Counted from the stretch's first letter, positions 3,092 to 42,216 are shown. The stretch: DNA of 64,000 nt from Thermodesulfobacteriota bacterium (GCA_049514515.1 JBEKUZ010000004.1:15321-79320); one strand, 5' to 3'. Translations and numbers: made by a program. The notes: generated by a model not told the origin, from the sequence alone.

Positions 3092-4645
3092 TTACGGCAA
3101 TACCATCTCAATGAGATGAGGCCCCGGCTCGGTAAATGCATTGCTCAGTTCCTGGGCGAGGTCTTCTGCAGTGCTGACAGTAACCCCCGGAATTCCAAAC
3201 CCTTGAGCAATTCTTGCCCAATTGATCGGGGGCTTCGTTAGTTCTGTCAGGGCTTGAGCATTCGGGCCAGGCGATGTGTTGCCCGCATGGACCAATTCCA
3301 CCTGAAGGATGCGGTAGCTCCGGTTGGAGCAAATCAAGGTGGTCACGTTTAATCCTTCACGGGCCTGCGTCCACAGGGCCTGCACTGTGTACATCGCACT
3401 TCCATCCGCCTCCAGGTTGATCACCGGCCGATCGGGACAAGCGATGGCAGCACCCGTCGCACAGGGAATGCCCAGCCCGAGCGCCCCGCCCGTCAAGGTC
3501 ATGAAGCTGTAGGCCGGCAGCCACGGAGGCGGAGCAAAATAGAGATACCCCGATGTGGCGGATTCATCGATAATGACCGCGTTTTCCGGCTGCATTGCCG
3601 CCAAAGTAAGACAAGCCTTTTCGGCCGTAAGCTTACCATCTGGTATTGCTTGCCGCTCTTGTCCCGCAAGGAGATTGTCGCCAATGGGAAGATGTGAAGG
3701 TGCGCCCAACGCGTCGGCAAGGTTTTCAAGAGCACCCACGACATTCTGCCGATCCGTACAAAGTGTCATTCTCTCTTGCTCATCAGTCAAAATTCGACTC
3801 CTAAAGCCGGGATACCCAAAGAAGGCAACCGGTTCCGGGGCTCCCGCGAATAGTACTACCTGGTATCGCGAAATCACGGCTGTCGCCTGCCCTGGAAAAT
3901 ATGGAAGCCGCTCCACGATGGGCAGCCCCGCGCCACGCTCCATGTATCCGGGAAATGTTTGAGTAAGGAGATCGCATCCTATCGCCTTCTGAATACGGAC
4001 CGCTGCATCCAGACCAGGCCTTCGCAGCGCCCTCCCTCCGAGCATAAGTGCCACTTTGCGAGAGCCACGTAACCGAGAGGCAATCGCCTTAATGGCATGG
4101 GAGTCAAGAGAATCAAATGGTCCGTCAGATGTCTTCACATTAGAGGAGCCACATTCGGCCAGTTGATAATCGTGAGGCACGATCAGCGTTGCCACCTGAC
4201 CCAGCCGAGTGGCCGTAATCGCCTCCAAGACATCCGCCCCAATCTCGGGAGCAGATTTGCTGGTTCGCCACCACCCTGAGACCGTCCTGGCAAGGCTCTC
4301 AATATCCATGGCGAGCGGCGGGTCCGCATCCCGGTGCCACGTGGCATGCTCGCCGACCACGGTCAGCACCGGCGATTTGGCACGCCGTGCGTTATGCAGG
4401 TTCGATATGCCGTTGGCGAGACCAGGACCCAGATGGAGCAGCACCATTGCCGGTTTATCCAGCATCCGTCCGTAACCGTCCGCAGCGCCGGTACAGACGC
4501 CCTCGAAGAGCCCCAGGAAAGCCTTGATGCCCGACGTTTTGTCGAGCGATGTAACAATCGGCAATTCAGTCGTTCCGGCGTTTGCAAAGCAAACCTCCAC
4601 ACCCGCTTCGATCGCAGTCTTTATAAGAAGCTCAGCACCGTTCAT
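3092..4645 (-). CDS. Thiamine-pyrophosphate-dependent enzyme (acetolactate synthase large subunit/IlvB-like family)
   Basis: N-terminal TPP-enzyme Pyr domain (MNGAELLIKTAIEAGVEVCFANAGTTELPI...). C-terminal TPP-binding GDGS/A...N motif region. True start is the ATG at 4645, preceded by GGAGGAGA; the ORF-track start at 4666 is GTG. Local GC ~60% versus ~48-50% in the neighbours. Confidence 0.8.
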   Translation of the reverse strand: MNGAELLIKTAIEAGVEVCFANAGTTELPIVTSLDKTSGIKAFLGLFEGVCTGAADGYGRMLDKPAMVLLHLGPGLANGISNLHNARRAKSPVLTVVGEHATWHRDADPPLAMDIESLARTVSGWWRTSKSAPEIGADVLEAITATRLGQVATLIVPHDYQLAECGSSNVKTSDGPFDSLDSHAIKAIASRLRGSRKVALMLGGRALRRPGLDAAVRIQKAIGCDLLTQTFPGYMERGAGLPIVERLPYFPGQATAVISRYQVVLFAGAPEPVAFFGYPGFRSRILTDEQERMTLCTDRQNVVGALENLADALGAPSHLPIGDNLLAGQERQAIPDGKLTAEKACLTLAAMQPENAVIIDESATSGYLYFAPPPWLPAYSFMTLTGGALGLGIPCATGAAIACPDRPVINLEADGSAMYTVQALWTQAREGLNVTTLICSNRSYRILQVELVHAGNTSPGPNAQALTELTKPPINWARIAQGFGIPGVTVSTAEDLAQELSNAFTEPGPHLIEMVLP

Positions 4646-4654
4646 GATTAATCT

Positions 4655-4712
4655 CCTCCCCCTCACCGCCTCCCTCTCCCCAGCGGGGCGAGGGGAAGGG
4701 TGAGGGCTTCAT
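4655..4712. repeat. GC-rich palindromic mini-element (CCCTCACC-GCC-TCCCTCTCCCC / GGGGCGAGGGGAAGGGTGAGGG)
   Basis: Near-perfect palindrome filling the 43-bp gap between the ABC ATPase stop and the TPP-enzyme start. Same family as the copy at 16483-16552. Confidence 0.7.
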
Positions 4713-6481: not shown

Positions 6482-6670
6482 TTATCTTATGAAAGGGATT
6501 CCGAGATCCTTGCAGATCTTCCGGGCGAGCTTGTCGTTGATCTCGGCGTGACGGGGGACGGAAGAGCGTCGGTTCTGCTGCGGGTTGCCCCACCATGAAT
6601 GACTCCCGCCTTCGCGAATGAATACACAGCCTTGCTCATGCAGGTGCTTGAGCAACTCCGTGCGCTTCAT
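6482..6670 (-). CDS. hicA: HicA-family toxin (mRNA interferase)
   Basis: 62 aa. HicA/YcfA-like signature (LLKHLHEQGCVFIREGGSHSWWGNP). 4-nt ATGA overlap with the upstream hicB-like gene. Confidence 0.75.
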   Translation of the reverse strand: MKRTELLKHLHEQGCVFIREGGSHSWWGNPQQNRRSSVPRHAEINDKLARKICKDLGIPFIR

Positions 6671-6879
6671 AGGGTAACCGGTTCCTCGGTATAATCGGGA
6701 GCCGCGGCCTGAATTGCTTCCTGACGGTTGAATTCGAGGGCCTCAGCGAGTGTGGTACGCAAGCTGTCGAGCAGTTTCTCCCGTGTTCTTTCCTGGCAGT
6801 TCACCCCAGGCACTTCCTCAATCCATCCAATCCACCATCCGCCATCCTGTTTTGTAACTGCCGTATAAGTATTTGCCAC
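6667..6879 (-). CDS. hicB: HicB-family antitoxin (UPF0150)
   Basis: 70 aa. HicB N-terminal RNase-H-like fold pattern (GGWWIGWIEEVPGVNCQERTREKLLDSL). Translationally coupled to hicA. Confidence 0.7.
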   Translation of the reverse strand: MANTYTAVTKQDGGWWIGWIEEVPGVNCQERTREKLLDSLRTTLAEALEFNRQEAIQAAAPDYTEEPVTL

Positions 6880-7024
6880 GTTCTGTCACCTCAACTCCAT
6901 AATACCATTTCTCATTTTCGTTGTCCATGTACACAACAACCCTCTAGAAAAACCCTCTCACTACAATCTGGGAGCGGCTTTCAGGGATCTCTTTCACCTC
7001 TCCCCAGCGCGAGGCCGTAGTATT

Positions 7025-7102
7025 CAGAGCATCCTGAAAGCTGTCATGCTTTCCAACTCACTGGTTTTGCGTGAGATCGACTTTTTCTACAGGCTCAATG
7101 CC
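7025..7102 (+). repeat. ~78-bp dispersed direct repeat, copy 1
   Basis: CAGAGCATCCTGAAAGCTGTCATGCTTTCCAACTCACTGGTTTTGCGTGAGATCGACTTTTTCTACAGGCTCAATGCC. About 80% identical to 11311-11390, same orientation. Confidence 0.8.
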
Positions 7103-7123
7103 GGACAGCTCCTTATGGGTTTT

Positions 7124-8869
7124 TCAATCATTCATCTGATATTCTCCGTTCAGAGGAAATACATATTTCTCCCAGACACGGCTAACCTGCACGTCATCCC
7201 CCACGGTCCTGATCAGCATAATCTCCCGGCAAAAGTCCCTTTGATCCGCTTTGGTCGTATTCATGCCGTAGATCTGCAGGGCAAATGAGGCGAAGTCCCT
7301 GACCATGAAATCGAATATCTGGTTGAGGATGTCCTTATCCAGATTTTCAATGCCGGACTGTTCAAGAATCAATTGACCATAGACCACAATAGAAAACATC
7401 TCACCAAGGGGTAACGAGAAGGAAGAATCCATATCCTGCTTCTGATCCGGATAAGCTTTGTTCAAGAACTCCTTGAAGAGTTCGATCTGCTTGATGAAAA
7501 CCGCCACATTCGGCAGATCTTTATACGAATCGAAAGTGGATTGATAGTCGTGAAACCGGACATTACCCAGGCCTTTGGCCGGTCCCTGGTTGAACAGGAA
7601 CAAATCGTCTTTGGTCGAAAGGTCGGGTTGCATCGGAGGATGATCGACAGGATTGAAAAAATAATTCTTCATGAACTTGCGGATAAGCTGAATGTTGACA
7701 TGCACAGTGCCTTCAAGCTTGGACGGACCTCGAATTTCGCTGGTGCCCGTGAAGAAGTAGGTGTCCTTCTCAAAACCCTTGGCGGCAATGACATCCCATA
7801 GCAGATTGATAACTTCTTCGGCCTGAAGGGTGACCTTCATCTTGCTCGTGGGATTGTAAAGGAGATAACGCCGGTCTTTTTCATTGGCATTCCGGAAATA
7901 GTCGGTGGCCCGGCGCTGGTAGAGCTTCATCCCTACCAGGCGGAGCCAGGCGTCCATAAAATTTTTTCTCACATGGGGCATATCGGTAACACGGCGGTCA
8001 TAGAGGATACGGTTGGAGGCATGGGTGATGGCCTCGTAAAAACAATGCTCAGCCACCCCGATGGAAGCCGGGCCGATATTGAATTTCCCGATATTGACCG
8101 TATTCAGAGCGGTATCCCAAGCCGCCGAACCCCGCGAGAGGAGGTCTTCTTCCCTGATGGGGTAATCATGAAGGGCGAAGTTGGACACATATTGCTGATG
8201 GGAAATGACGTTCTTTTTCAACTCGTAGGCTTTATGGCGGTAATTGGTGACGAAAAAGGCATAGTCATCTGTGCCGTCCTTTATTTTGCCCATGGTCGAA
8301 ACCATCTCAGCCTCGTTCCCGTTTCCGATATAGTATTTCTCTCCATTGGCAACCCAGGTGCCGTCTCCTTTTGGTGTGAGTGTCGTATCCGCACTGTAGA
8401 TGTCGGCGCCGTGAGCTCTTTCAGACAGGCCGAAAGCAAAGATCGCCCCTCCCCTGAGAAGCTTGGCCGCTTTCTGCTTGGCCTTCTCATTCTTACTCAT
8501 CCAGATGGGGCCCAAGCCGAGGATGGTCACCTGGAAGCAATACCAGTAACCCAGGCCATAAAAGGCCAGGAGTTCGCTGTAGGCGTTGTTGCGGGCCGTA
8601 TCCCAACGGCAATCCGGATCACCGTCACTATAGATCTTGGGTGTAAGCAACTTGGAAAAGATCCGTTCTTTTTTGATAAAATCGACAAACTCCTTGTACC
8701 AGACCTTCTTATTGAAATCATCGAGGAGCCTGGCCTTTCCCATGCTCTCGAAGAATTGGATTGTCTTTGTCATAATGGTCCGCGAATTTTCATCGACCAT
8801 GAGGCCTGTGTATTTTTTAGGTTGAAGCAGGAAGTTCATTTTTCGCTCCTCTCCTGATCCATTGGTCAT
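7124..8869 (-). CDS. Acyl-CoA dehydrogenase family protein (long, ~580 aa)
   Basis: ACAD middle and C-terminal signatures (AFGLSERAHGADIYS..., GNGNEAEM...). Length class resembles AidB/large ACADs. Confidence 0.75.
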   Translation of the reverse strand: MTNGSGEERKMNFLLQPKKYTGLMVDENSRTIMTKTIQFFESMGKARLLDDFNKKVWYKEFVDFIKKERIFSKLLTPKIYSDGDPDCRWDTARNNAYSELLAFYGLGYWYCFQVTILGLGPIWMSKNEKAKQKAAKLLRGGAIFAFGLSERAHGADIYSADTTLTPKGDGTWVANGEKYYIGNGNEAEMVSTMGKIKDGTDDYAFFVTNYRHKAYELKKNVISHQQYVSNFALHDYPIREEDLLSRGSAAWDTALNTVNIGKFNIGPASIGVAEHCFYEAITHASNRILYDRRVTDMPHVRKNFMDAWLRLVGMKLYQRRATDYFRNANEKDRRYLLYNPTSKMKVTLQAEEVINLLWDVIAAKGFEKDTYFFTGTSEIRGPSKLEGTVHVNIQLIRKFMKNYFFNPVDHPPMQPDLSTKDDLFLFNQGPAKGLGNVRFHDYQSTFDSYKDLPNVAVFIKQIELFKEFLNKAYPDQKQDMDSSFSLPLGEMFSIVVYGQLILEQSGIENLDKDILNQIFDFMVRDFASFALQIYGMNTTKADQRDFCREIMLIRTVGDDVQVSRVWEKYVFPLNGEYQMND

Positions 8870-9111
8870 TTTCTAAAGATAGGGCAATTAATGGTCCAAG
8901 GAAAAAACCTGGCAGGATTTGGTCTCAGCTTTTGGCAAGGTCCTGTTGATTGCAGAAGTCTGGCCCTCTCCACTCCGGCAGTCTTTTTTGCCGTGTCCGA
9001 CTTAAGCACCTTGTTATAAGTCTGATGTTTCAGTAAGAAATGATATCTTACTTGCCTTCGCCAGGTCTCCAACTTTGAGCCAATAAATTAATTTTCTCAA
9101 CTCTGAATTTT

Positions 9112-9300
9112 CTAATTGCTAGTAACGTAGCCCTTTTCGCGAATGTCTTCATCATCCAGATAATGAGATAGATTTGAGTGCACATTCTCTAAGTTATCTA
9201 TTGAGAGTGCCTCGATTTTCTTTCGAGCAACTGAAGCATGTAGCTCTCCATTTGATAGACCCTCTAGGATGGAGACGAGTTCTTCGATTTTTGATTTCAT
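9112..9300 (-). CDS. Small hypothetical protein (62 aa)
   Basis: ORF only. Sigma-54-like promoter TGGCGT-N5-TTGC about 50 nt upstream on the minus strand. Confidence 0.3.
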   Translation of the reverse strand: MKSKIEELVSILEGLSNGELHASVARKKIEALSIDNLENVHSNLSHYLDDEDIREKGYVTSN

Positions 9301-9483
9301 GTTTTGTTCTTTATAACGACTCGCTTAACCTGCGCGCGCAACCTGCCGCCCGCAAACCTAACGCCAATGCCGAATCTTGCAGGGTCTGGTCTCAGCTTTT
9401 GATAAAGTCCTCCTTTTGAGATCTGATCCTCATCACTCTTCCCTATGATGAGGTCGGCGGACTGTCGGGCATCCGTTGATTCG

Positions 9484-9702
9484 TTACGCCGCCACTGTGT
9501 GAACGTCGGATGGAAGTCTGCTAAGAATCAATTCCTTTAATTGAATCTTCTTGCTGGCGTTATCAATATCAATACCCACCAAATTGCCTTCGGCATCATA
9601 ATCAAGCACGACACCTTCAGAAATCTCCTTGCTCTCGACGCTCGTTTTCTCCGAGAGATCGATATACAGGGAATCGGTCTCCGGGTAATAGTTGAGTTTC
9701 AT
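9484..9702 (-). CDS. DUF2283-family protein (putative antitoxin partner)
   Basis: 72 aa (MKLNYYPETDSLYIDLSE...EGVVLDYDAEGNLVGIDI) typical of DUF2283. 4-nt overlap with the upstream DUF4258 gene. Confidence 0.6.
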   Translation of the reverse strand: MKLNYYPETDSLYIDLSEKTSVESKEISEGVVLDYDAEGNLVGIDIDNASKKIQLKELILSRLPSDVHTVAA

Positions 9703-9941
9703 AGCTTGTACCTCCTGTCAAAAAAAGCATTGTGAATCGTTTTTTTATCTTCCAAAGTCACTACTCGTAAGACACGGCCTTCAAGTTCATCGATTATACC
9801 CCAAAATCGAAAACGCTTAGGTTCCTGAGGTTCGATCTTGAGCGGGTTCTCAATGACGCGAATACACCATTCCCTCTTGAGATATGGACGTTTCCTCAAA
9901 ACCTCTTTATCAAAATATTCTGTAAATCTATATTCAGCCAT
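9699..9941 (-). CDS. DUF4258-family protein (putative toxin partner)
   Basis: 80 aa. The DUF4258/DUF2283 pairing is a recurrent two-gene TA-like module. Confidence 0.55.
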   Translation of the reverse strand: MAEYRFTEYFDKEVLRKRPYLKREWCIRVIENPLKIEPQEPKRFRFWGIIDELEGRVLRVVTLEDKKTIHNAFFDRRYKL

Positions 9942-10249
9942 TAAACAATTAAATTATACCATGTTTCCCAGCGTTTTTTAGAAAAATTTAGGGCAATTTG
10001 CGGGGGGAGTCAAGAAGAAAATCTGGGGACGTCTGTCTAACCTCTAAAGAAATAACGGCAAAACATTGCAGGTGAAAATTATAGGGAGGTAGTTTCGGTT
10101 AGCCCTCGGCAGCTCGAACCTCTTAGAGATATATTTCTGCGGTTAAAAACGCAGTTCTAGGCAATAAATCAGCGTCATTTCTTTGAGATTCAGTTATAAG
10201 TATCAAACACTTACCTTGGTCCAACCCACACACGCGCATCAGCCTGTAG

Positions 10250-11200
10250 TTAGACGACCAGCATTCCAAGAGATGCAATAAGCAAGGCCGAAACAAATTC
10301 TTGGAGCGTATTCGTAACATTTAACAAGTCGATGGATGCCTTCTCTGGTTTGCCAGTATGAAGTATTTGGCTGCGTAAATCGTAACAGTAGATGAAAAAG
10401 CGTTCCGCTGACATTCCCCCGTAATCGCGACTTCCCAATAAGCGCTTCACGAGCTTTCTGCCACTTTGCCTTATTGATTCGTATTTCAGCCACTGTAGGC
10501 TACCCATGAATGACTCTTTTGTTTCTGCCAACATGGCAGAGCGCCGTACCAATTCTGACATATTCTCTACGATAGCTTTGTCCAATTCGGAGCGTTCAGC
10601 AAGCTCAAGTACAGCCTCAATCGACGTCACTAGAGTGATAAGCCTACTCCGGAGGGATACATCAAAGGATGAGGCACAATACAGCTCAAACGCCAATAAT
10701 TGTTTCTCAGTCAGAACGGGGTGCTGGCCAAATGTTTCAGAAAATTGGCCAACGAAGGTAGTTGGATCTTTACCAAGCGTGAACTGGGCGTTCATACGAA
10801 CAAACACCATACCATCTTTGTGTTCGTATATGTCTACACCGTGTACGTCATTCCGAACGGGACGTTTATACATTTCTTCAAACATCTTTATTCCGGTACT
10901 TGTTACGACGCCCCGCAACCGCCCATCACCGAAATCAATCCCGACTCTCTGTCGAACCGCCCAAGCCAAGAGAGCTGCTTTTACCCGTTCAACTGCCTCT
11001 TTCGCCTGTTCAACGGAAGAATACGGGCCGCCTATAACAGCTGCATCTGGGAAATCTTTTATTGGATTTCCTATTCCACCTGACCGGATTCGCAGCTTTT
11101 TACCATCTGCTTCTTCGAAGATCACTTGCTCTTCTGTGTCGATGTTGATACGAGTATCTTGCGAAAGGTGAAATCTAACTCGGAAATCAAAATTAGGCAT
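10250..11200 (-). CDS. Uncharacterised protein (316 aa), C-terminal R-x4-H HEPN-like motif
   Basis: No family recognised. C-terminal ...YDLRSQILHTGKP contains Rx4H. Last gene of the repeat-bracketed segment. Confidence 0.5.
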   Translation of the reverse strand: MPNFDFRVRFHLSQDTRINIDTEEQVIFEEADGKKLRIRSGGIGNPIKDFPDAAVIGGPYSSVEQAKEAVERVKAALLAWAVRQRVGIDFGDGRLRGVVTSTGIKMFEEMYKRPVRNDVHGVDIYEHKDGMVFVRMNAQFTLGKDPTTFVGQFSETFGQHPVLTEKQLLAFELYCASSFDVSLRSRLITLVTSIEAVLELAERSELDKAIVENMSELVRRSAMLAETKESFMGSLQWLKYESIRQSGRKLVKRLLGSRDYGGMSAERFFIYCYDLRSQILHTGKPEKASIDLLNVTNTLQEFVSALLIASLGMLVV

Positions 11201-11310
11201 ATTTACTTACCGTTCGCCTAACGAGCCTGTGGGAAAAACCCCTCACTGCGCTTAGGGGGTGGTTTTCGGGGGTCTCTTGACCCCTCCTCAGCATGAGACC
11301 GTCGCATACA

Positions 11311-11390
11311 GAGCATGCTGAGAGGTCGCATTTTCTTCCACTCGTTGGTTTCGCGCGAGATTGACTTTTTCTACAGCCTCAACGCTAAGG
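11311..11390 (+). repeat. ~78-bp dispersed direct repeat, copy 2
   Basis: CAGAGCATGCTGAGAGGTCGCATTTTCTTCCACTCGTTGGTTTCGCGCGAGATTGACTTTTTCTACAGCCTCAACGCT. Matches 7025-7102. Confidence 0.8.
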
Positions 11391-11441
11391 CTCACCGGGA
11401 GCCGGATTTATCGGCGATCCGGTAGCGCCTTGTTAGGTGCT

Positions 11442-11876
11442 TTATTTTTTTCCCATAGAGAGAAATATCTCTAGTGGAAGTCTTGCCCACTGGCTCTTAT
11501 GCATAGGCTCTAATGGTTCCAATTGTTGCAGCGATTTTAATGGCGTTAACTTCTGCAATCCCTTTAGACGTTCAAGTTTTGTAAGCTTATTAACAGCGCC
11601 TTCGATAAAACCAACCGCATAGCCCTCGTGATCCCAGATTATACCTTTTTTAAACCAGCCAAGATGCTTCCCGTTAAACCCATAAATGGATTCTCCGTCT
11701 AGATACGCGACTGGCTCGCCCTTCCATAGATAAATATTCATCTCATCTTCCGTATCAATATACGCGACCGCTTCACCAGCGTCGTCAAATAATGAAATTT
11801 CACGGGCATACCCAATGGCAGGGACCAATAAAAGGATGACCAGAAAGGTTGCTAACAATCTCGTGACTTTCATTGT
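11442..11876 (-). CDS. Secreted hypothetical protein with internal Y-x-D/G repeats
   Basis: Start moved to MKVTRLLATFLVILLLVPAIGYA (signal peptide) with AAGGAGA 6 nt upstream. The ORF-track start at 11987 is unsupported. Repeats AVAYIDTEDE / PVAYLDGES / YAVGFIEG. Confidence 0.5.
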   Translation of the reverse strand, partial: TMKVTRLLATFLVILLLVPAIGYAREISLFDDAGEAVAYIDTEDEMNIYLWKGEPVAYLDGESIYGFNGKHLGWFKKGIIWDHEGYAVGFIEGAVNKLTKLERLKGLQKLTPLKSLQQLEPLEPMHKSQWARLPLEIFLSMGKK

Positions 11877-11983
11877 CGTCTCCTTTGCACCTAACGGAAA
11901 GCTCAGCCAGAGGCAGGCGCCGTTTCCTGCCGATTGGCTGCAGCGCCGGGTTAGAGCTTTCATGGACACTGTCGAGAGATTCC

Positions 11984-12856
11984 TCATGGGGATGTGTCCA
12001 CGGCCCCTATCAACTCAGGTTTCACAAAGGCTTCGAGGTCTGCCAAGAAATCCTCGACCCCGTTGCCGCGCCTTGAGAAGCACTTTGCGATAGGCATTCC
12101 AGTTCGAGCCTTCGCTATGCGCCGCCTCATCTTTTCGACACGCTCCGCCCAGGGGCCGTCGAGAAGAACATAATCGCAGCAATTCACCGACATGGCTGCG
12201 TGCTGAAGGTCAATAGCGTCGTTTTCGGAGATCGGTGCTTTGCAGTCCAGAACATAGCCGCGTATCAGCTCCCCCAAAATCACTTTTGTTCTTGGTCGCC
12301 TGTCATCTGGAACTGCATTGCGAGCTTTGCGGACGTAGCTTGGTTCTAGGCGGATACTTTCTATCCGCTTGATAATCTCCACAGCAACACGATCAGTCGA
12401 TTTAACAAGTTCGGTCCCATACTCGTAAGCCACCGAAATGAAGCCGCGCATAGTGAACCCAAAGGGGGCATTTTGCGCACGCTCACAGAAGAACTTGAGT
12501 GTCGGAAGATCAGCGGACGGCCAAAACCGCCTCTGGTTGTTGGAATCAGCTCGTTCCTGCTCTAGGACCTTGTCTAGGGCGAAATCTGTGAAGAAAACGT
12601 TCGGTAACAACCTCTCGATGAAAGCTTCGGTGTCGCGGCAATGACGAGCATCCGTAGCGCGGACGAACTCGACCAACGAAAGATTAGACAGAAGGAGGGT
12701 TCCTCCCTTCGACATGAGGGCTTTCACAAACCGATCTTGGATACCCGGGTCGTCAGAGAATACTCGAATTGCCCAGTGATCAAAATAGACAGTTGGTGGG
12801 TCAAAGCTCTGCCTCGCGTGAACACCGTCGGACGCTACTAAAAACTCAATGGGCAT
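11984..12856 (-). CDS. Uncharacterised protein (290 aa)
   Basis: No recognisable family. Possible PIN-like pattern, very uncertain. First gene of a three-gene minus-strand operon. Confidence 0.45.
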   Translation of the reverse strand: MPIEFLVASDGVHARQSFDPPTVYFDHWAIRVFSDDPGIQDRFVKALMSKGGTLLLSNLSLVEFVRATDARHCRDTEAFIERLLPNVFFTDFALDKVLEQERADSNNQRRFWPSADLPTLKFFCERAQNAPFGFTMRGFISVAYEYGTELVKSTDRVAVEIIKRIESIRLEPSYVRKARNAVPDDRRPRTKVILGELIRGYVLDCKAPISENDAIDLQHAAMSVNCCDYVLLDGPWAERVEKMRRRIAKARTGMPIAKCFSRRGNGVEDFLADLEAFVKPELIGAVDTSP

Positions 12857-13118
12857 TTGACGGATCCTTGATGTATCATTCTATGGCTCTAACAATTAAT
12901 AGACGAAGTTCCGATTTGTTTCCAATCGGTCCTCCTAAGTCTACCTTATTACCACTTTTTACACATGGTGTCTATAAGTCAATCGATTGTATTCCGGATA
13001 ATAAAGGAGCACTCTCCGCGGGAGAAGTCCCGTGGATCAAAAGCCGTCATAATAAATTCCAAGATATTGAATTGTCCCAACAACTAATGCAAACGCGTTT
13101 AATCACTTTACATGTAGC

Positions 13119-13159
13119 GCAAGGCTTTAGCCTTGCTTAAAGCAACCCTAAAGGGTTGC
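13119..13159. promoter_or_regulatory. Twin 7-4-7 palindromes GCAAGGC-TTTA-GCCTTGC / GCAACCC-TAAA-GGGTTGC upstream of uvrA
   Basis: Two adjacent perfect palindromes with the shared frame GCAA-N3-TWWA-N3-TTGC, about 70-110 bp upstream of the uvrA start. Candidate operator (for example an SOS-type repressor). Confidence 0.35.
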
Positions 13160-13228
13160 CCTACAAAATATTTAATGCGTTTGTATTAGTTTGAAGAAAT
13201 GGTGGACTTATGTATTATAATTAATTCG

Positions 13229-16042
13229 ATGGAAAAGTTTATAGAGATTATCGGGGCCAAGTCCCACAACCTCAAGAATATCAACTGCAAAATTCCCAGG
13301 GGAAAGATTACCGTCATCACAGGCGTCTCGGGGTCGGGCAAATCAACCCTCGCTTTCGACACACTCTTCGCAGAAGGCCAGAGACGTTACATTGAATCCC
13401 TCTCCACTTATGCCCGGCAATTCTTAGAGAAGATGGACCGGCCTGATGTCGAAGCCATCCATGGAATCCCTCCTGCCATCGCCATCGAACAGAAAAACAG
13501 CGTCAAGAATGCTCGCTCCACGGTTGGAACAGCCTCTGAGATATATGATTACCTCAGGCTTCTCTTTGCTAAGATCGGTGAAGTCTTCTGCCCGGACTGC
13601 CACGTCAAAGTCTCAGGCGATACCGTGGAGGGTGTCGTAGAACAGATCTTGAGTCAATTTAAAGGAGTAAAGATTTTCATCCTCAGCCCGGTCTCTCTGG
13701 ACGATAGCCAGGAAAGAGAGCTTAAGGTAAAAGATCTCATCAAAAATGGATATTACCGAATTTGCGAGAAAGGCCAAATTCTTGATCTCACCAGCCTCTC
13801 TGCTTCAGAATTTCAACAAAGGTTTTCCCCCTCTTCCTCCCCTCTCCCACAAGGGGAGAGGGTGATGGAGAAGAAAGCTCTCTCCGTCCTCATTGACAGG
13901 CTTGTCTTAGAAGAGAAGGAAAGATCAAGGCTATCTGAAGCCATTCAGAAAGGGTTTCAAGTAGGGAATGGTAAAATTGAAGTGCTCACTGAACAGGGTA
14001 AGAGAATGACCTTCAACAGGAGCTTCTCCTGTAATCGCTGCGGACGAAATTTTTCAGAGCCCGAGCCTCTTCTCTTCTCGTTTAACAGCCCTCTCGGCGC
14101 CTGCCGCGCCTGCCAGGGTTTCGGCAGGATCATTGGGATCGATTGGCAGAAGGTGATCCCGGATCCGAAAAAGACATTGAAAGAAAAACCCTTTGCTCCC
14201 TGGAACACGCCGGCTTATGAAGACCTTTATGAATATCTATGGACGGCCTGCCGGAGGCACAAGATTCCAACCCAAAAACCCTTTGAAGAACTTCTCCCTC
14301 AACAGAAAGAGATTTTAGTCAACGGAAAAGGGGAGTTCATCGGCTTAAAAGGATTCTTTGAATGGATGGAAGGAAAGCGGTACAAAGTTCACTACCGGGT
14401 TTTTCTGAGTAAATACCGGGCCTATACCCCCTGCCCCACCTGTCACAATACCCGACTAAAAGAAGAAGCACTCTATGTGTTACTGGCGGGGAAAAATATT
14501 GCCGAGCTTTGCGACATGCCTATCTCCGACCTCCAGATGTTCTTCAAGAATCTGCCGATCAAAGACTTTCAAAAGAAGGTTGGAGAGCGCCTGCTTAAAG
14601 AGATTAACGACCGAATCGGATTCATGGTGGATGTCGGATTGGGATACTTAACCCTTTCCCGTCAAACCAGAACTCTCTCCAGCGGCGAATATCAGCGCAT
14701 CACATTGGCGAGGTCGCTCGGCTCCGCTCTGACTGAAACTCTCTATGTCTTGGATGAGCCGAGCATTGGCCTGCACGCAAGGGATACCCATCGCCTCCTT
14801 CGGTCCCTCCGGAAATTACGAGAAGGAGGAAATACAGTGGTCGTAGTGGAACACGATCCGGATGTGATACGAGCAGCCGATGAGGTCATTGACCTTGGCC
14901 CCGGGGCCGGAAGATCGGGAGGCTCTATGGTTTTTCAAGGAGGGCTGGAATCCCTTCTGCAAAACCAGGATTCCATTACAGCCCGCTACTTGCGAGACGG
15001 AACGGCCTCTGATCCAATCAGGTCTCTTAGAAAACCGCAAGGGTGGATTTCCATCCACAATGCACGGGAGCACAACCTTAAAGGAATCGATGTGAGAATC
15101 CCGTTGGGCGTAATGGTTTGCATCACGGGCGTCTCCGGAGCCGGAAAGACCACCTTGGTTCACAACATTCTATACTCAGGAGCAAAGGGCAATGGGAGCT
15201 CAGGCTTTGAAAAGGGAGCCTTCGACTCCATCAAAGGTCTCGATCAGATCCATGATCTCATCCTGGTCGATCAATCGCCCATTGGGAAAAGTCTTCGCTC
15301 AAACTCAGCCACCTATATCAAGGTATTCAGCGAGATTCGGGATCTTTTCGCCCAGACCCGGGAGGCCAAGCGATATGGATTCAAACCCCGCCATTTCTCT
15401 TTCAATACAGAAGGGGGCCGATGTGAAACCTGCCAGGGCGCGGGGTTTCAAGTTCTGGACATGCAATTCTTAGAAGATGTCATCATCACCTGTGAAACGT
15501 GTGAAGGGAAGAGATTCCGGCCTGAGATTCTGAAAGTGAAGTACCGAGATAAGAATATTTCAGAAGTGCTAAATATGACCGTTGATGATGCAATCGCCTT
15601 CTTCGAAAGCCATCACCGAATTCTGCAAAAACTTCAAACCCTGAAAGACGTGGGCTTAGGCTATCTCACCCTCGGCCAATCCACCAATACGCTGAGCGGG
15701 GGAGAATCCCAGCGTCTGAAACTGGCTCAGCATATCGGCCAAAGCCATGAGGGGAAGAGTCTCTTCATCTTTGACGAACCCACCACAGGACTCCACATGG
15801 CCGATGTCGAACTCCTTCTGATGACCTTTGAGAAACTTCTTTCCCAAGGCCATTCGATCATCGTGATTGAACACAACCTCGACCTCATCCGACGTGCAGA
15901 TTATATCATTGATTTGGGCCCTGAAGGAGGGGAAGAAGGAGGAAGGATCGTGGCCGAGGGCGATCTCAAAAAGATCATGGCCTCGCCGCAATCCTACACA
16001 GGGCAGTTCCTAAAACAACGCCTGAACGAAACAAAGGTTTAG
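13229..16042 (+). CDS. uvrA: Excinuclease ABC subunit A (UvrA)
   Basis: MEKFIEIIGAKSHNLKNI...GVSGSGKSTLAFDTLFAEGQRRYIESLSTYARQF. Two ABC ATPase modules, zinc-finger cysteines. Start trimmed to 13229 by alignment to the canonical UvrA N-terminus. Confidence 0.95.
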   Translation: MEKFIEIIGAKSHNLKNINCKIPRGKITVITGVSGSGKSTLAFDTLFAEGQRRYIESLSTYARQFLEKMDRPDVEAIHGIPPAIAIEQKNSVKNARSTVGTASEIYDYLRLLFAKIGEVFCPDCHVKVSGDTVEGVVEQILSQFKGVKIFILSPVSLDDSQERELKVKDLIKNGYYRICEKGQILDLTSLSASEFQQRFSPSSSPLPQGERVMEKKALSVLIDRLVLEEKERSRLSEAIQKGFQVGNGKIEVLTEQGKRMTFNRSFSCNRCGRNFSEPEPLLFSFNSPLGACRACQGFGRIIGIDWQKVIPDPKKTLKEKPFAPWNTPAYEDLYEYLWTACRRHKIPTQKPFEELLPQQKEILVNGKGEFIGLKGFFEWMEGKRYKVHYRVFLSKYRAYTPCPTCHNTRLKEEALYVLLAGKNIAELCDMPISDLQMFFKNLPIKDFQKKVGERLLKEINDRIGFMVDVGLGYLTLSRQTRTLSSGEYQRITLARSLGSALTETLYVLDEPSIGLHARDTHRLLRSLRKLREGGNTVVVVEHDPDVIRAADEVIDLGPGAGRSGGSMVFQGGLESLLQNQDSITARYLRDGTASDPIRSLRKPQGWISIHNAREHNLKGIDVRIPLGVMVCITGVSGAGKTTLVHNILYSGAKGNGSSGFEKGAFDSIKGLDQIHDLILVDQSPIGKSLRSNSATYIKVFSEIRDLFAQTREAKRYGFKPRHFSFNTEGGRCETCQGAGFQVLDMQFLEDVIITCETCEGKRFRPEILKVKYRDKNISEVLNMTVDDAIAFFESHHRILQKLQTLKDVGLGYLTLGQSTNTLSGGESQRLKLAQHIGQSHEGKSLFIFDEPTTGLHMADVELLLMTFEKLLSQGHSIIVIEHNLDLIRRADYIIDLGPEGGEEGGRIVAEGDLKKIMASPQSYTGQFLKQRLNETKV
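13826..13865. repeat. Palindromic mini-element inserted in-frame in uvrA (TCCCCTCTCCC-ACAA-GGGGAGAGGG)
   Basis: Encodes SPSSSPLPQGERV inside the UvrA variable region. Same core as the intergenic copies at 4655 and 16483. Confidence 0.7.
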
Positions 16043-16368: not shown

Positions 16369-16482
16369 AGGGATTCCTCCTCGTTCATATATTATTCACC
16401 GCTTCTTCTTTATTTTTACACATATCCCCTTTGAATTGTCAACGAATGTTTTTTCCCGAGCTTTTCCTTTTATCGGGTTCAC

Positions 16483-16552
16483 CCTCACCCCGCCCTCTCC
16501 CCTCAAGGGAGAGGGAAGTGGAAGGTGGTTCCACCCTCACCCCGCCCGCTGC
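16483..16552. repeat. GC-rich palindromic mini-element (CACCCTCACCCCGCC-CTCTCCCCTCAAGGGAGAGGG...CACCCTCACCCCGCC)
   Basis: Palindrome CCCTCTCCCCTCAAGGGAGAGGG flanked by 15-bp direct repeats. Homologous to 4655-4712. It generates the spurious N-terminal extension of ORF 16431. Confidence 0.7.
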
Positions 16553-19753: not shown

Positions 19754-22231
19754 ATGGCAAAAGACCCAAACAGAGTCATTTCCGAGCTACATAAAGGAAG
19801 ATATATACCCATCCAAAACATAAAGAGAAAGAAAATAGCTACCCATTTAGCAGATCGGAAAACAACTCGACCCCTCAAAAACTCGGCCATTACCATGCCC
19901 TTACTTGCTAAACAGATGGAGGAGGCACTGCGTCGGAGTGAGGAGAAATACCGAACCATCATTGAGAACATGCAGGAGGGTTATTATGAGCTTGACCTTG
20001 CCGGTCGTTTTACCTTTGTTAATGACGCGCTTTGCAAACATCTCGGATATACCAAAGAGGAATTGGTCGGGACGCGCGCCCGACAGTATCAAGATGAAAC
20101 AACCACTAAGAAAATGCATCAGATATTCACCGAACTCTACAGAACAGGGGAACCGGTTAAGGCATTAGAGTCGGAATATATCAGAAAAGACGGCACCAAA
20201 GGGACTTACGAACTGTCGGTATCTCTTCTACGGGATGCACAAGGCAAACCCATCGGATTCCGGGGTGTTTCTCGGGACATCACCGAGCGCAAGCAGACGG
20301 AGGAGGCACTGCGAAGAAGTGAGGAGAAATACCGAACCATTCTTAAAAACATGGAAGAGGGTTATTACGAAGTAGACCTTGCCGGTAATTTCACCTTTGT
20401 CAATGATGTCATCTCCAGACATCTCGGGTATACCAAAGAGGAATTGATCGGGATGAACTACCGGAAGTATGCGAGCGAGGAAACCTCTAAAGAGTTGTAT
20501 CAGCACTTTAGCGAACTCTACCGAACAGGCCAACCGATTAAGCCATTCGCGGTGGAATATATCAGGAGAGACAGAACCAAACTGATTTCTGAAATTTCGG
20601 TATCTCTTATAAGAGACCTCGAAGGGAAGCCGATCGGGTTTCGTGGAATCTCGCGCGATATCACCGAGCGCAAACAAGCAGAGGAGACATTGCGGAGAAG
20701 CGAGGAGAGATACCGAACCATTATCGAGAACCTCCAGGACGGCTATTTTGAGAACGACCTTGCCGGTAATTTAACCTTTGTGAACGATATCATCTGCCGA
20801 AATCTCAGATATACCAGAGAGGAACTAATCGGGATGAATTACCGGCAGTATACGGACGAGGAAGACCGTAAAAAGGTGCTTCAACTTTATGGCGAACTGT
20901 ACAGAACAGGGCAGCCTGTTAAGTCATTGGAAGTAAAACATGTCAGAAAAGATGGGGCCAAACTGTTTGCCGAGATCTCGTCATCTCTTATACGGGATTC
21001 GGAAGGAAAACCGATCGGGTTTCGAGGCATCTCGCATAACATCACCGAGCGCAAGCAGGCAGAAGAGGAGAAGTTATCTCTTCAAGAGCAGCTTCGGCAG
21101 GCGCAGAAAATGGAGGCCGTTGGCCAGTTGGCAGGGGGGGTGGCTCACGACTTTAACAACCTCCTGACCGTTATCAAGGGCTACAGCCAACTTTCCCTCT
21201 TCGACCTTAAAGAAGATAACCCCCTTTGGGGAAACATCCAAGAGATTGAAAAAGCCAGTCAACGGGCAACGGATCTAACTCGCCAACTTTTAGCCTTCAG
21301 CCGTCGTCAGATCTTGGACCTCAAAGTGGTCGATCTCAACGTCCTCCTAGAAGATCTGGAAAAGATGCTGCGCCGGATCATCGGCGAGGACATTACATTG
21401 GCCACTCTTCTATCCGAAGGTTTAGGAAAGGTCAAAGTAGATCCGGGTCAGATCGAGCAAGTGATCCTCAATTTAGCCGTAAACGCCAGGGATGCAATGC
21501 CCTCCGGCGGGAAACTCACCATCGAAACGGCGAATGTGGAGTTGGACGAAGAGTATGCCCATGCCCATGTCAATGTGGCCCCGGGTCGATATGTGAGGCT
21601 TTCCGTCAGCGATACGGGGGTTGGGATGACACCGGAGGTGAAAGAAAAGGTCTTCGAGCCCTTCTTTACGACTAAAGAAAAAGGAAAGGGGACCGGATTG
21701 GGCCTCTCCATGGTTTACGGAATTGTCAAGCAGAGCAATGGGAATATCTGGCTTTATAGTGAACCGGGGCGTGGGACCACCTTCAGGATTTATTTTCCAA
21801 GGGCGGAGGAAGAGGCAGATGGTCTTCATAAGGAAGAAGTAACGGATGTCTTTCCGAGGGGTAGTGAGACAATCCTTCTGGTGGAGGACGACGAATTGGT
21901 GCGAAACCTGGCAACCCGACTTTTAGAGCAGCAGGGCTACAGGGTCTTGAAGGCAACCAACGGCCAAGAGGCGCTGCGCGTCGCGAAGGAACATGTCGGA
22001 GAAACGATCCACCTCCTGCTGTCTGACATTGTGATGCCTCAGATGGGTGGAAAAGAGTTGTCCGATTGGCTTAAAATCTCGCGGCCCAACGTCAAGGTCC
22101 TTTATACCTCGGGTTATGCGGACGATGCGATTGTCCACCACGGTGTGCTGGACCCGGGGACCCATTTCTTGCAGAAACCTTTCTCTCTCAAAACGTTATC
22201 ACACAAGGTACGCGAAGTATTGGATGAGTAA
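19754..22231 (+). CDS. Hybrid sensor histidine kinase with multiple PAS domains and C-terminal receiver domain
   Basis: Repeated PAS units (EEALRRSEEKYRTI...GYTKEEL...YRTGQP...), HisKA (VAHDFNNLLTVIKGY), HATPase_c (GTGLGLSMVYGIV), REC (ILLVEDDELVRNL...LLSDIVMPQMGG). Confidence 0.9.
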   Translation: MAKDPNRVISELHKGRYIPIQNIKRKKIATHLADRKTTRPLKNSAITMPLLAKQMEEALRRSEEKYRTIIENMQEGYYELDLAGRFTFVNDALCKHLGYTKEELVGTRARQYQDETTTKKMHQIFTELYRTGEPVKALESEYIRKDGTKGTYELSVSLLRDAQGKPIGFRGVSRDITERKQTEEALRRSEEKYRTILKNMEEGYYEVDLAGNFTFVNDVISRHLGYTKEELIGMNYRKYASEETSKELYQHFSELYRTGQPIKPFAVEYIRRDRTKLISEISVSLIRDLEGKPIGFRGISRDITERKQAEETLRRSEERYRTIIENLQDGYFENDLAGNLTFVNDIICRNLRYTREELIGMNYRQYTDEEDRKKVLQLYGELYRTGQPVKSLEVKHVRKDGAKLFAEISSSLIRDSEGKPIGFRGISHNITERKQAEEEKLSLQEQLRQAQKMEAVGQLAGGVAHDFNNLLTVIKGYSQLSLFDLKEDNPLWGNIQEIEKASQRATDLTRQLLAFSRRQILDLKVVDLNVLLEDLEKMLRRIIGEDITLATLLSEGLGKVKVDPGQIEQVILNLAVNARDAMPSGGKLTIETANVELDEEYAHAHVNVAPGRYVRLSVSDTGVGMTPEVKEKVFEPFFTTKEKGKGTGLGLSMVYGIVKQSNGNIWLYSEPGRGTTFRIYFPRAEEEADGLHKEEVTDVFPRGSETILLVEDDELVRNLATRLLEQQGYRVLKATNGQEALRVAKEHVGETIHLLLSDIVMPQMGGKELSDWLKISRPNVKVLYTSGYADDAIVHHGVLDPGTHFLQKPFSLKTLSHKVREVLDE
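19918..21051 (+). repeat. Three tandem 378-bp repeats encoding PAS modules
   Basis: Units at 19918-20295, 20296-20673 and 20674-21051, each starting GAGGAGGCACTGCG.AG.AG.GAGGAGA.ATACCGAACCAT and ending ATCACCGAGCGCAAGCAG.C. Roughly 75-80% nucleotide identity. Confidence 0.85.
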
Positions 22232-26320: not shown

Positions 26321-26425
26321 ATGTCATGCTGAACCCTGAAGGTGTCATGCCGAACTCTGAATGTGTTATGCCGAACGCCCAAAGTGTCATGCCGAACGCC
26401 CAAAGTGTCATGCCGAACTTGTTTC
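26321..26425 (+). repeat. Tandem 21-bp repeat array (GTGTCATGCCGAACGCCCAAA x about 5)
   Basis: Units at 26342, 26363, 26384 and 26405, with a degenerate copy at about 26321. Ends in the palindrome ATGCCGAA-cttg-TTCGGCAT. Lies about 100 bp upstream of the first pseudopilin gene. Confidence 0.8.
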
Positions 26426-26529
26426 GGCATCTCTCCAGGGCAGGCTTGTTTCAGCATTTGGTTCATTCTTTTCCCGCTGTCAGCAGACGCAGTATTAATA
26501 AACCTTCGGACCCTCGACCCCTTGAACCC

Positions 26530-27540: not shown

Positions 27541-28128
27541 ATGACTAATTATCCCGAAATCCAAAATCCAAAATCCCCCTCACCCTCTCCCTCCCCCTCC
27601 AGGGGGGAGGGTTGGGGAGGCGATAGGGGTTTCACCCTAATAGAAATCATCGTTGTGATTGTCATTTTGTCTATTGTCTCGGTCATCACTATTAAGTTCT
27701 TGGTTGATAGTTTGAGAGTCTATACGATGACAGTCAATCAAAAGAGTCTTTTCGACGAAGGGAAATTAGCATTGGAACAGATGTGCAGAGGTATCCGGGA
27801 TGCAAATAGCATTACAGGAGTTACTGCCACTTCGATAACTTTTGTGAGAGACAATGCAACAGCTAACGATGCTGTAGGAGAAACAATTAGTTATCAACTC
27901 AACGCAGGTGTAGTCCAAAAAGTGAAAGCCGGCAACGGCTACGCAATGGCCAGAAACGCTACTACATTTGCCGTGACGAATGCTACAAATGAGATCCTTC
28001 TACAATTAACACTTCAATTGGCAAGCGGAGAGAATGTAACCCTGCAGACAAAGATTTATCCCAAAAACCTTGCAAAAAGTCTAACTTATAAGAGCTTCTA
28101 CTCAAACTGGATGGAGGCATACCAGTAG
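27541..28128 (+). CDS. Prepilin-type minor pilin/pseudopilin with extended leader
   Basis: ...RG|FTLIEIIVVIVILSIV. The 29-aa leader contains SPSPSPSPSRGEGWGG encoded by a palindromic mini-element (27574-27625). Confidence 0.7.
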   Translation: MTNYPEIQNPKSPSPSPSPSRGEGWGGDRGFTLIEIIVVIVILSIVSVITIKFLVDSLRVYTMTVNQKSLFDEGKLALEQMCRGIRDANSITGVTATSITFVRDNATANDAVGETISYQLNAGVVQKVKAGNGYAMARNATTFAVTNATNEILLQLTLQLASGENVTLQTKIYPKNLAKSLTYKSFYSNWMEAYQ

Positions 28129-41618: not shown

Positions 41619-41664
41619 CCAATAAACACCCTTTCCTTCTCTCCGTTGAGAGAAAGGAAAGGGT
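41619..41664 (-). terminator. Intrinsic terminator after pilin gene 1
   Basis: Minus strand: CACCCTTTCCTTTCTCTC-aacgg-AGAGAAGGAAAGGGTG followed by TTTATT. Confidence 0.6.
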
Positions 41665-41703
41665 GAGGAGAACATTTTGGATATAAGTTTGCCTATCCCT
41701 CTA

Positions 41704-42169: not shown

Positions 42170-42216
42170 CAATAAACACACCCTTTCTTTCTCTCCGTTA
42201 AGGGAAAGGAAAGGGT
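42170..42216 (-). terminator. Intrinsic terminator after pilin gene 2 (duplicate of the 41619-41664 terminator)
   Basis: Same long GC-rich hairpin plus TGTGTTTATT on the minus strand. Confidence 0.6.

Follow-up and report, generated by a model that had tools for sequence, protein, structure and literature searches.

Insertion sequences of the IS1111-attC group, which target attC, were reportedly described by Tetu and Holmes in 2008. Elements of this group leave footprints at the ends of arrays (PMC11187229), and IS1272, a member of the IS1182 family, is reported to target inverted-repeat structures (PMC5678879). Integron integrases themselves have been reported to integrate cassettes into GWT sites that lie outside att, with a central cleavage point (bioRxiv 10.1101/2022.09.11.507474), and clusters of attC sites lacking an integron integrase are termed CALIN (Cury et al. 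2016, PMC4889954). Here we compare with these systems a pair of direct repeats that an earlier note had placed around a 4.3-kb segment of a Thermodesulfobacteriota bacterium; the window is the whole 64-kb stretch of DNA analysed. Both repeats belong to one non-coding element of about 160 bp, which we call element X and of which they are diverged copies. Our preferred reading, to which we assign a probability of roughly 0.6, is that X is a MITE-like insertion targeting attC and that the 4.3 kb between its copies is not one mobile block.

The direct-orientation repeat lies where the earlier note had placed it and is about twice as long as reported there. The segments named, 7025-7102 and 11311-11390, are indeed similar, but the identity is 75% (60 identical positions over 78/80) instead of about 80%. 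Ungapped similarity between the two repeats covers 109 nt at 76% (family D6), and blastn aligns them over 155 nt with 75.5% identity (E 1.7e-24). Measured from inverted repeat to inverted repeat, copy A (6938-7096) has 159 nt and copy B (11223-11380) 158 nt, both on the minus strand and 74.5% identical. The termini are 18-nt terminal inverted repeats, GAGGCTGTAGAAAAAGTC ... GACTTTTTCTACAGGCTC, with one mismatch; they lie at 7079-7096 (5′) and 6938-6955 (3′) in copy A, where the 3′ repeat is degenerate (CTAGAGGGTT), and at 11363-11380 (5′) and 11223-11240 (3′) in copy B. Both copies are situated, as had been described, in the gap between two successive minus-strand genes, past the stop of the first and ahead of the start of the second, and the acyl-CoA dehydrogenase stop codon ends 24 nt before copy A (21 nt plus an ATT triplet). 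Copy A is flanked by ATT (7097-7099) and GTT (6935-6937), while its orthologue in the strain variant L083 has GTT at both ends, as does copy B. A third copy was not found in the 64-kb window by nhmmer or blastn. X contains no ORF, is small (156-161 nt), occurs in many copies and ends in terminal inverted repeats, the features by which MITEs are recognised; since the copies on this one contig are about 25% diverged, they do not reflect a recent burst.

The X family occurs in many uncultured Thermodesulfobacteriota and Nitrospirota. We collected about 46 distinct full-length copies; a metagenome scan gave 59 loci, and a genome scan found full or partial X in one MAG each of Nitrospirae, delta-proteobacterial, Syntrophaceae and Thermodesulfobacteriota origin. 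Mean column identity is 82% over the 46 copies, which come from many contexts, and similarity ends exactly at the inverted repeats; copy B is 84-90% identical to its homologues in other contigs. GTT stands at both ends in 42 of the 49 distinct paired elements, and the only concordant case with another reading is L059, whose flanks are AAC/AAC in the element's orientation.

Copy B splits the core site of an integron-type attC hairpin (11377-11438, minus strand; ACCTAAC ... GTTGAGG). The GTT on its 5′ side (11381-11383, minus strand) is also the GTT of the core site beside the hairpin (GTTGAGG), and the GTTAGGC directly after it (11216-11222, minus strand) is the far copy of the core site (GTTRRRY), with the 316-aa gene unit next; the occupied attC reads ACCTAAC ... 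GTT[X]GTTAGGC. A second integron-type attC hairpin, without X, lies between the 290-aa and Bflower genes (11889-11956, minus strand; CTCTAAC ... GTTAGGT). Both hairpins combine an inverse core with a GTTRRRY core, CTCTAAC deviating from RYYYAAC at base 1, and both are imperfect palindromes whose lengths of 62 nt and 68 nt fall within the attC range of about 57-141 nt. Their inverse cores begin 4 nt (Bflower gene) and 28 nt (290-aa gene) past the stop of the ORF and lie on its strand, and an attC just downstream of an ORF and on its strand is also present in L006, L012 and L014. These attC calls come from our own constrained AAC...GTT hairpin scan and comparison, not from the IntegronFinder covariance model; only three hairpins in the 64 kb exceed the threshold of the scan, all within this island, and there is no attC hairpin upstream of copy A.

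Across the family, the attC consists of AAC, a 2-3 nt spacer, a 6-bp stem with one bulged base in the 5′ arm, and a stem-loop, and the same architecture is found beside intact TIGR02249 integron integrases in L084, L085 and L088. The constrained AAC...GTT DNA hairpin energy upstream of X has a median of -10.5 kcal/mol compared to -2.8 in shuffles, and is -10 or lower at 35 of 69 sites compared to 8 of 69 shuffles. The hairpin lies upstream of X in 24 of 34 elements and the mirrored arrangement in none of the 34 (Wilcoxon p 4e-7). Most X copies lie precisely within the GTTRRRY core of an attC of integron type, and in one orientation only; the insertions without a recognisable attC are copy A with its L083 orthologue, and L059. 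The same attC subtype is unoccupied in L023, L062 and L077, where it ends in GTTAGCA or GTTAAGT and has a single GTT, compared to the GTT/GTT flanks of an occupied site. With the first bases of X, the near core site reads GTTGAGC or GTTGAGG and so stays close to consensus, and in the predicted DNA fold of the attC with copy B the inverse core CCTAAC pairs with the far GTTAGG, leaving X as a side branch.

This placement also bears on a possible but unlikely alternative, that X is mobilised by an integron integrase and not by a transposase, either as a cassette-like unit without an ORF or as an IS or MITE whose ends mimic an integrase site. The ends of the excised circle would abut as CTACAGGCTC-G|TT-GAGGCTGTAG, a double-stranded palindrome centred on the crossover triplet and comparable to attI or attG, and the partner of this site would be a resident attC, recombining as its folded bottom strand. 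Such a route is consistent with the fixed orientation of X relative to attC, with its exact position where a cassette would sit, between two G|TT points (42 of 49), and with the near-consensus core site that its start preserves; in addition, the junction with hicBA after X, GTT GTGTACATGG (GTT GTGTAC), is kept in three contexts (here, L046 and L083), and copies outside attC are still at GTT, matching the integrase insertions reported at GWT sites in genomes. Cassettes without an ORF are known (PMC6557892). However, X has neither an inverse core (RYYYAAC) of its own nor an attC-type fold with paired core boxes, so a defining feature of a cassette is missing: there is no attC of its own at the 3′ end, which pairs instead with its own 5′ end. 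Further, the X of L059 is inverted relative to its GTT flanks, and no X was found within 10 kb of three integrons of related integrase type with intact integrases. The only integrase remnant is in L062, an internally deleted integron integrase (TIGR02249, E 1.2e-43) divergent from an array with two X copies. Also against an integrase, the inverted repeats of X bound an IS-like layout of left repeat, RBS, IS1182-type transposase remnant and right repeat. The flanking triplets do not decide the matter, because the GTT/GTT 'duplication' is not diagnostic: integrase crossover at G|TT would give an identical pattern. The near-total orientation bias fits a site- or strand-specific mechanism better, since with near-identical ends a transpososome should produce insertions in both orientations at the non-palindromic GTT. 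It is rather doubtful that X and its IS1182-like siblings are a previously undescribed class of integron parasites, inserted in one orientation by the host integrase via CTACAGGCTC-GTT-GAGGCTGTAG. If an integrase were responsible, it would use the G|TT of attC and now and then a GTT elsewhere in the genome, the self-pairing ends would let an occupied attC still fold and recombine, and an IS or MITE would have captured a site-specific recombination pathway.

The layout just described belongs to other elements that have the same inverted repeats as X and different interiors. In one sibling class, an RBS and an ORF come right after the left inverted repeat and are followed by the right one, and the ORF corresponds to the N-terminus of an IS1182-family transposase, sometimes fused to the C-terminus (PF05598, PF13751, NF033551). 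No complete IS combining these inverted repeats with an intact transposase was found among the 1171 matches inspected, all of them headed by fragments of at most 137 aa. The interior of X is unrelated to the transposase-bearing class beyond the inverted repeats, with the exception of a hybrid (L079, 9908-10576). X looks MITE-like because the attC subtype also exists without it and because its siblings share its inverted repeats, one class carrying IS1182-family transposase remnants. We propose that X is a non-autonomous derivative of an IS1182-family insertion sequence ending in these inverted repeats, mobilised by a transposase that acts in trans. Its target would be a GTT triplet, seemingly duplicated (3 bp) on insertion, and it would strongly prefer the attC core site. 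As the ends of X pair, it can fold on itself in single-stranded DNA, and since folded X leaves the attC arms beside the far GTTAGGC, the host site may stay usable. Copy A has either lost its upstream attC or never had one; the attC that holds copy B is intact. The hairpin and T-run at the 3′ end of X may stop read-through from the upstream cassette; a terminator-like hairpin with T-run was flagged at the 3′ end of one copy (L022), on the coding strand of the cassettes.

This terminator-like end is also an argument for the improbable reading that X is retained for its function, either as structured RNA or in transcription (for example as an sRNA, a leader regulating in cis or a terminator that insulates cassettes from one another), with its spread being secondary. 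The conservation of X points the same way, as do a predicted fold into a closing helix with four hairpins and the replacement, in L023 and L062, of one X hairpin by an unrelated one. Against this, Rfam gave 0 matches in the whole window, none even at E up to 10, and in E-value mode its best matches were at chance level, at most 17 bits compared to gathering scores of at least 34.7. The single-sequence fold z-scores of X are only -1.6 and -2.0, paired cells amount to 90.2% compared to 89.5% in shuffles, and double-sided changes are not above shuffled or slid controls. With consensus G-T pairs set aside, the strand asymmetry is absent (70 versus 76). X has no convincing promoter, and its inverted repeats, flanking triplets and variable interiors point to mobile DNA. 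As there is neither an Rfam match nor significant covariation beyond controls, the regulatory or structured-RNA role that the earlier note had offered as an alternative is unsupported. We consider it extremely improbable that X is a REPIN-like or BIME-like doublet moved by a REP-associated tyrosine transposase. The inverted repeats do contain GTAG ... CTAC, and L027 has, after the left inverted repeat, an ORF truncated at the end of the contig that starts with MPRQARLDAPGILHHVMVRG and that we take to resemble Y1/RAYT transposases. But no REP hairpin lies beside GTAG, the inverted similarity between the two ends of X stops after 18 nt, the one Y1 transposase that we examined (L006) is a normal IS200 lying within a cassette gene, and the transposase remnants in elements sharing the inverted repeats of X are of IS1182 type.

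The region from uvrA to an ABC transporter gene is a small cassette island with two attC hairpins, toxin-antitoxin pairs and orphan genes, all features below being on the minus strand. It includes a 290-aa gene (11984-12856; no Pfam match), which forms a cassette-like unit with the attC at 11889-11956, and a Bflower-domain gene (PF21784; 11442-11987), followed by the attC at 11377-11438. Because the longest Bflower ORF overlaps the upstream attC, translation probably begins more internally, near 11873 or 11963. Copy B is followed first by a 316-aa gene (10250-11200; no Pfam match). Then come a toxin-antitoxin-like pair, an 80-aa ORF and a DUF2283 ORF overlapping by 4 nt (9484-9941), a 62-aa ORF flanked by a 39-nt repeat of family D8 (9112-9300), and, directly upstream of copy A, a 581-aa gene of the acyl-CoA dehydrogenase family (7124-8869); a unit with a hicB-like and hicA pair (6482-6879) begins right after copy A. 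Pfam agrees with the earlier labels of acyl-CoA dehydrogenase, DUF2283, HicA and PCC/DUF296, whereas HicB has only a weak UPF0150-like match and the 80-aa ORF labelled DUF4258 has no match at E<0.01. A complete integron (intI, TIGR02249, with adjoining array) is not present in the window, where tblastn with an approximate IntI1 query gave nothing better than E 4. The two attC hairpins, with no integrase in 64 kb, fit a small CALIN-type island.

The earlier note had offered, as one reading, a 4.3-kb block that recombines at the two repeats and is gained or lost as a whole, which we consider very improbable. Two similar direct-orientation sequences do bracket accessory genes, and in L046 a copy-B-type attC with X is followed directly by hicBA, as though the block were missing. 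However, the element in L046 is no B/A hybrid, and 75% identity over 155 nt is a poor substrate for homologous recombination. Close relatives compared at the locus differ in the gene content of this island, but their variable segments end elsewhere: in L083 the replaced segment is about window 8977-12889, and L060/L037 have deletions from a point within copy A to about 5800 and within the acyl-CoA dehydrogenase gene. As these end points differ from the repeat pair, the repeats do not delimit a 4.3-kb cassette. The 4.3 kb between the copies is several independent gene units, and the two repeats are independent insertions of a small element that ends in terminal inverted repeats. Two parts of the earlier interpretation stand: the locus is not simple intergenic DNA, and it is linked both to a recombination system, its island containing attC hairpins, and to variable genes.

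Compared with known systems, X resembles the IS1111-attC group (ISPa21, ISKpn4, ISPst6) in inserting at one end of attC in a fixed position and orientation. That group has a DEDD transposase and a downstream seekRNA and makes no duplication, whereas X has no gene; its inverted repeats are 11-13 bp and subterminal, with 7-bp and 3-bp extensions, whereas those of X are 18 bp and terminal (PMC11187229). The relatives of X carry remnants of an IS1182-type (DDE) transposase instead, and X was rejected as a member of the group on account of its lack of a gene, its inverted repeats reaching the ends at 18 nt and these relatives. Group IIC-attC introns are likewise a mobile element class targeting attC, but they are about 2 kb and encode a reverse transcriptase, whereas X has no intron structure or ORF (PMC3001079). 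Integron cassettes without an ORF are, like X, non-coding DNA in the cassette slot between two G|TT points (PMC6557892); a cassette is terminated by its own attC, in which inverse core and core pair, whereas the ends of X pair with each other. A CALIN has at least two attC less than 4 kb apart and no integrase nearby, and the island itself is CALIN-like, its two attC-type hairpins being separated by about 450 nt and oriented like the small accessory genes, with no integrase anywhere in the 64 kb; it differs in that only two sites pass, in our own scan and not in IntegronFinder, and in that the downstream gene units have no recognisable attC. X departs from MITEs in its near-absolute target and orientation specificity for a recombination-site hairpin, and no autonomous parent was found. 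In other respects it matches them, as a small element without coding capacity that has terminal inverted repeats, a short direct repeat at its flanks and many copies, and whose siblings share its ends and differ inside, including internally deleted IS copies.

The intergenic repeats at 7025-7102 and 11311-11390, put at about 80% identity in the earlier note, are direct repeats as described, with a measured identity of 75%. They belong to two copies of a non-coding element of about 160 nt, here called X: copy A at 6938-7096 and copy B at 11223-11380, both on the minus strand. The copies align over 155 nt at 75.5% identity (blastn, E 1.7e-24), with 109 nt at 76% ungapped, and neither nhmmer nor blastn found a third copy in the 64 kb. 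As the note had stated, both fill gaps between minus-strand genes, and they have the same orientation as those genes when read on the minus strand. Pfam supported the labels acyl-CoA dehydrogenase, DUF2283, HicA and PCC/DUF296 and identified a Bflower-domain protein in the island, the region between uvrA and an ABC-transporter gene; it gave no family for the 316-aa, 290-aa or 80-aa ORFs, the last of which had been labelled DUF4258. The contig derives from an uncultured, peat-associated Thermodesulfobacteriota and was found in many samples.

A genome scan with the most conserved 20-mer of X as the query returned true homologues in MAGs of Nitrospirae, a delta-proteobacterium (three sites), Syntrophaceae and Thermodesulfobacteriota, and a metagenome scan set up to leave out the window's own organism yielded 59 loci. 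With nhmmer, about 46 distinct copies of full length were recovered, together with many partial copies; several contigs carry two to five copies, always on the same strand per contig. The scan of viral contigs gave one match, at chance level. Elements of this type are common in Thermodesulfobacteriota and Nitrospirota. Across the family X is 156-161 nt long with boundaries that are sharp in the alignment, starting with GAGGCTGTAGAAAAAGTC and ending with GACTTTTTCTACAGGCTC, and its terminal inverted repeats span 18 nt with one conserved mismatch. Of 49 distinct paired elements, 42 have GTT on either flank; in most copies AGGC, AGGT or AGCC follows the second GTT on its right, with no similarity beyond. 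The left flank varies in sequence but is constant in shape: RYYYAAC is followed by 2-3 nt and a 6-bp stem, after a single bulged base in the 5' arm come a stem-loop and the return arm, and a short spacer leads to GTT. The constrained hairpin energy of this flank has a median of -10.5 kcal/mol, compared to -2.8 for shuffles.

Because the inverse core (RYYYAAC) and core (GTTRRRY) motifs, the extra-helical base, the length and the position right after an ORF match the definition of attC, the recombination site of integrons, the hairpins left of X are taken to be attC sites. They resemble the sites beside three intact integron integrases (416 bits to TIGR02249, cut-off 265), and the motif C-CAGCGG-A...CCGCTG-A is common to both. 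At L062, an internally deleted integron integrase, divergent, adjoins an array with two X copies. When the whole window was scanned, only three AAC...GTT hairpins exceeded the threshold, all of them in the island: an attC-like hairpin at 11377-11438 (minus strand) whose core is split by copy B, another at 11889-11956 (minus strand) without X, and a 118-nt multi-branch palindrome at 13078-13195, between the 5' ends of the 290-aa gene and uvrA. No integrase-like sequence was found in the window. With two attC-like hairpins and no integrase, the island therefore fits the definition of an attC cluster lacking an integrase, the attC calls coming from the hairpin scan and comparison rather than from the IntegronFinder model. 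Beside the intact integron integrase of a Thermodesulforhabdaceae MAG lies an attC, ACCTAACAATTCATTCAAGCCGACGCCGCTTCGCGGCGCGGCTTAATTCAGGCGTTAGCC (L084 9000-9059, minus strand), which looks almost identical to the aadA-type attC found in class 1 integrons from clinical settings.

The attC ahead of copy B is of a subtype (CCGGATCGCCGATAAATCCGGCTCCCGGTGAGCC) that was also seen without X, in L023, L062 and L077, where the core is uninterrupted (GTTAGCA, GTTAAGT). We rejected a composite long attC that includes X because of these empty sites, and X reads as an insertion into attC, not as a part of it. The hairpin lies upstream in 24 of the 34 elements with enough flank, and the mirrored downstream arrangement occurs in none of them (p 4e-7). 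In the predicted DNA fold of attC plus copy B, the inverse core CCTAAC pairs with the far GTTAGG and X forms a side branch, suggesting that an occupied site may still be able to fold. Copy A is away from any recognisable attC, about 20 nt after the acyl-CoA dehydrogenase stop codon, and its orthologue in the related locus L083 has GTT on both sides; another X away from a recognisable attC, in L059, has AAC/AAC flanks in element orientation. At L006 4430-4960, an ordinary IS200 (Y1 transposase, hairpins at both ends) breaks a DJ-1/PfpI cassette gene just upstream of attC and X.

The same inverted repeats enclose other interiors in a 99-nt class (L024, L038) and a 250-670-nt class (L012, L022, L042, L045, L079). 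In the longer class, a Shine-Dalgarno sequence and an ORF come after the left inverted repeat; the ORF encodes the N-terminal part of an IS1182-family transposase, in some cases joined to the final 35 residues of that protein (PF05598, PF13751, NF033551). As this class is laid out like an internally deleted insertion sequence (IS), the shared inverted repeats would most simply be IS ends and X a MITE-like relative. A hybrid at L079 9908-10576 consists of the left part of a transposase-bearing element followed by the right half of X. IS1272, of the IS1182 family, has been reported to target inverted-repeat structures (PMC5678879). More than 1100 predicted proteins, 45-137 aa long, represent the truncated N-terminal part of a single IS1182-family transposase lineage, a number of them with the last ~35 residues attached; this amounts to a very abundant population of internally deleted IS copies bounded by X-type inverted repeats (L022, L042, L045, L079, L080), with no intact copy among the matches listed. 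At L022 ~1520-1650 and L012 ~3950-4125, the array end beside a conserved acyltransferase gene has been reduced to the left inverted repeat and a shortened interior, reminiscent of the degenerate footprints that IS1111-attC elements are reported to leave where arrays end. An IS1111-type reading of X, with a 7-bp extension and a subterminal inverted repeat, was rejected since IS1182 remnants are present in related elements and the inverted repeats pair right up to the ends. The REPIN/RAYT reading was also rejected. The description that fits X best is that of a MITE-like, IS1182-related insertion with the core of integron attC sites as its target, in one orientation.

The main rival is that an integron integrase, not a transposase, moves X. 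A search for the full-length parent IS, first with the sequence of the truncated transposase and then with a profile of it, gave only fragments among the matches listed, and integrase crossover at G|TT also leaves a GTT on either side. Integron integrases have been reported to insert cassettes at GWT genome sites, via double-stranded sites cut at their centre (bioRxiv 10.1101/2022.09.11.507474), and X joined end to end in a circle would give such a double-stranded palindrome around GTT. The near-total orientation bias fits a mechanism with site specificity better than one that uses a symmetric transpososome. For these reasons the integrase mechanism is retained as the main rival, one that we consider improbable. 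No X was found in the arrays of three intact integrons of related integrase type, and X is not a canonical cassette, because it has neither an inverse core of its own nor the attC fold.

The earlier note had read the repeat pair as bracketing a recombination-delimited cassette. Its link to recombination and to variable gene content stands, as the repeats lie in a cassette-type island between uvrA and the ABC-transporter gene that varies among relatives; the bracketing does not, since this variation is not located at the repeat pair. In L083 the acyl-CoA dehydrogenase gene, copy A, hicBA and the PCC gene are retained at 94% identity, and window ~8977-12889 is replaced by three different small genes. 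In L060 and L037, all that is left between uvrA and the ABC-transporter gene is an acyl-CoA dehydrogenase gene with an internal deletion and about 50 nt from the start of copy A. Neither difference coincides with the ends of the 4.3-kb block between the copies; copies A and B are thus separate insertions and the intervening genes several independent units. In L046 an attC of the copy-B type with X lies directly before hicBA, with the right-hand junction of copy A; a B/A recombinant is not supported, as this X is not a B/A hybrid.

Other repeats also occur in the window. A 39-nt intergenic repeat at 8906-8944 and 9373-9411 (82% identical; AGGACYTT..CAAAAGCTGAGACCA..CCTGC on the minus strand) flanks a 62-aa ORF and recurs in L083 3291-3325; one copy adjoins an end of the segment in which the window and L083 differ. 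The non-coding leader at 9961-10236, upstream of the 80-aa/DUF2283 pair and with a promoter-like site (TTGACT-17-TAAATT), recurs at 81-84% identity in L046 (2597-2871 and 4713-4822), L047 and L050, suggesting that it moves along with cassettes or from one to another. G/C-rich palindromic intergenic repeats of the CCCTCTCCCC...GGGGAGAGGG type form two families, with copies at 4657-4694, 13825-13862, 16478-16515 and 27574-27611, and also at 28231, 31576, 31621 and 39322; the first family recurs in L035, L060 and L083. There are further 381-nt tandem repeats inside an 825-aa PAS-domain ORF (19910-21162), a 21-nt tandem repeat of about five units (26322-26426) and a 300-nt duplicate at 91% identity (41626-41925 and 42178-42477).

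The alternative that the repeat is a structured-RNA element found no support in the structure and covariation analysis. A search of the whole window against Rfam gave nothing at the gathering threshold, and the two copies, searched in E-value mode, gave chance-level matches only. Single-sequence folds of X copies were mildly better than shuffles (z-scores -1.6 and -2.0), and the RNAalifold consensus was an empty structure. A RIBOSUM-weighted consensus gave five helices, i.e. a closing helix formed by the inverted repeats and four hairpins, the last followed by a T-run. The pair statistics were no better than controls: paired cells made up 90.2% compared to 89.5% in shuffles, double-sided change was seen at 9 pairs (7.2 ± 1.9 in shuffles, 12-16 in slid versions), and the strand asymmetry (G-T over A-C excess) disappeared once consensus G-T positions were removed. 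The 3' hairpin and T-run were flagged as terminator-like in one copy, and a terminator or insulator side effect of X is possible. No convincing sigma-70 or sigma-54 promoter was found in the conserved 5' block by eye or by prediction; a putative TAGAAA-17-TAATAT promoter in the transposase-bearing class was picked out by eye and falls below the prediction threshold.

X accounts for the repeat in the window. Integron cassette arrays are a main store of accessory genes in environmental bacteria. If confirmed, the insertion of X would affect the annotation of these arrays, as attC finders will meet a split or doubled core site, and would bear on the decay of arrays into integrase-less clusters and on transposon recognition of a folded recombination site. 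To our knowledge, attC-homing elements have until now been of two kinds, IS1111-attC insertion sequences and group IIC-attC introns. X is best described as a new variant beside them, with a candidate transposase or integrase as the mobilising enzyme; as a third kind it would differ from both in being very small and non-coding, in lying exactly on the crossover triplet and in its tie to IS1182-type elements.
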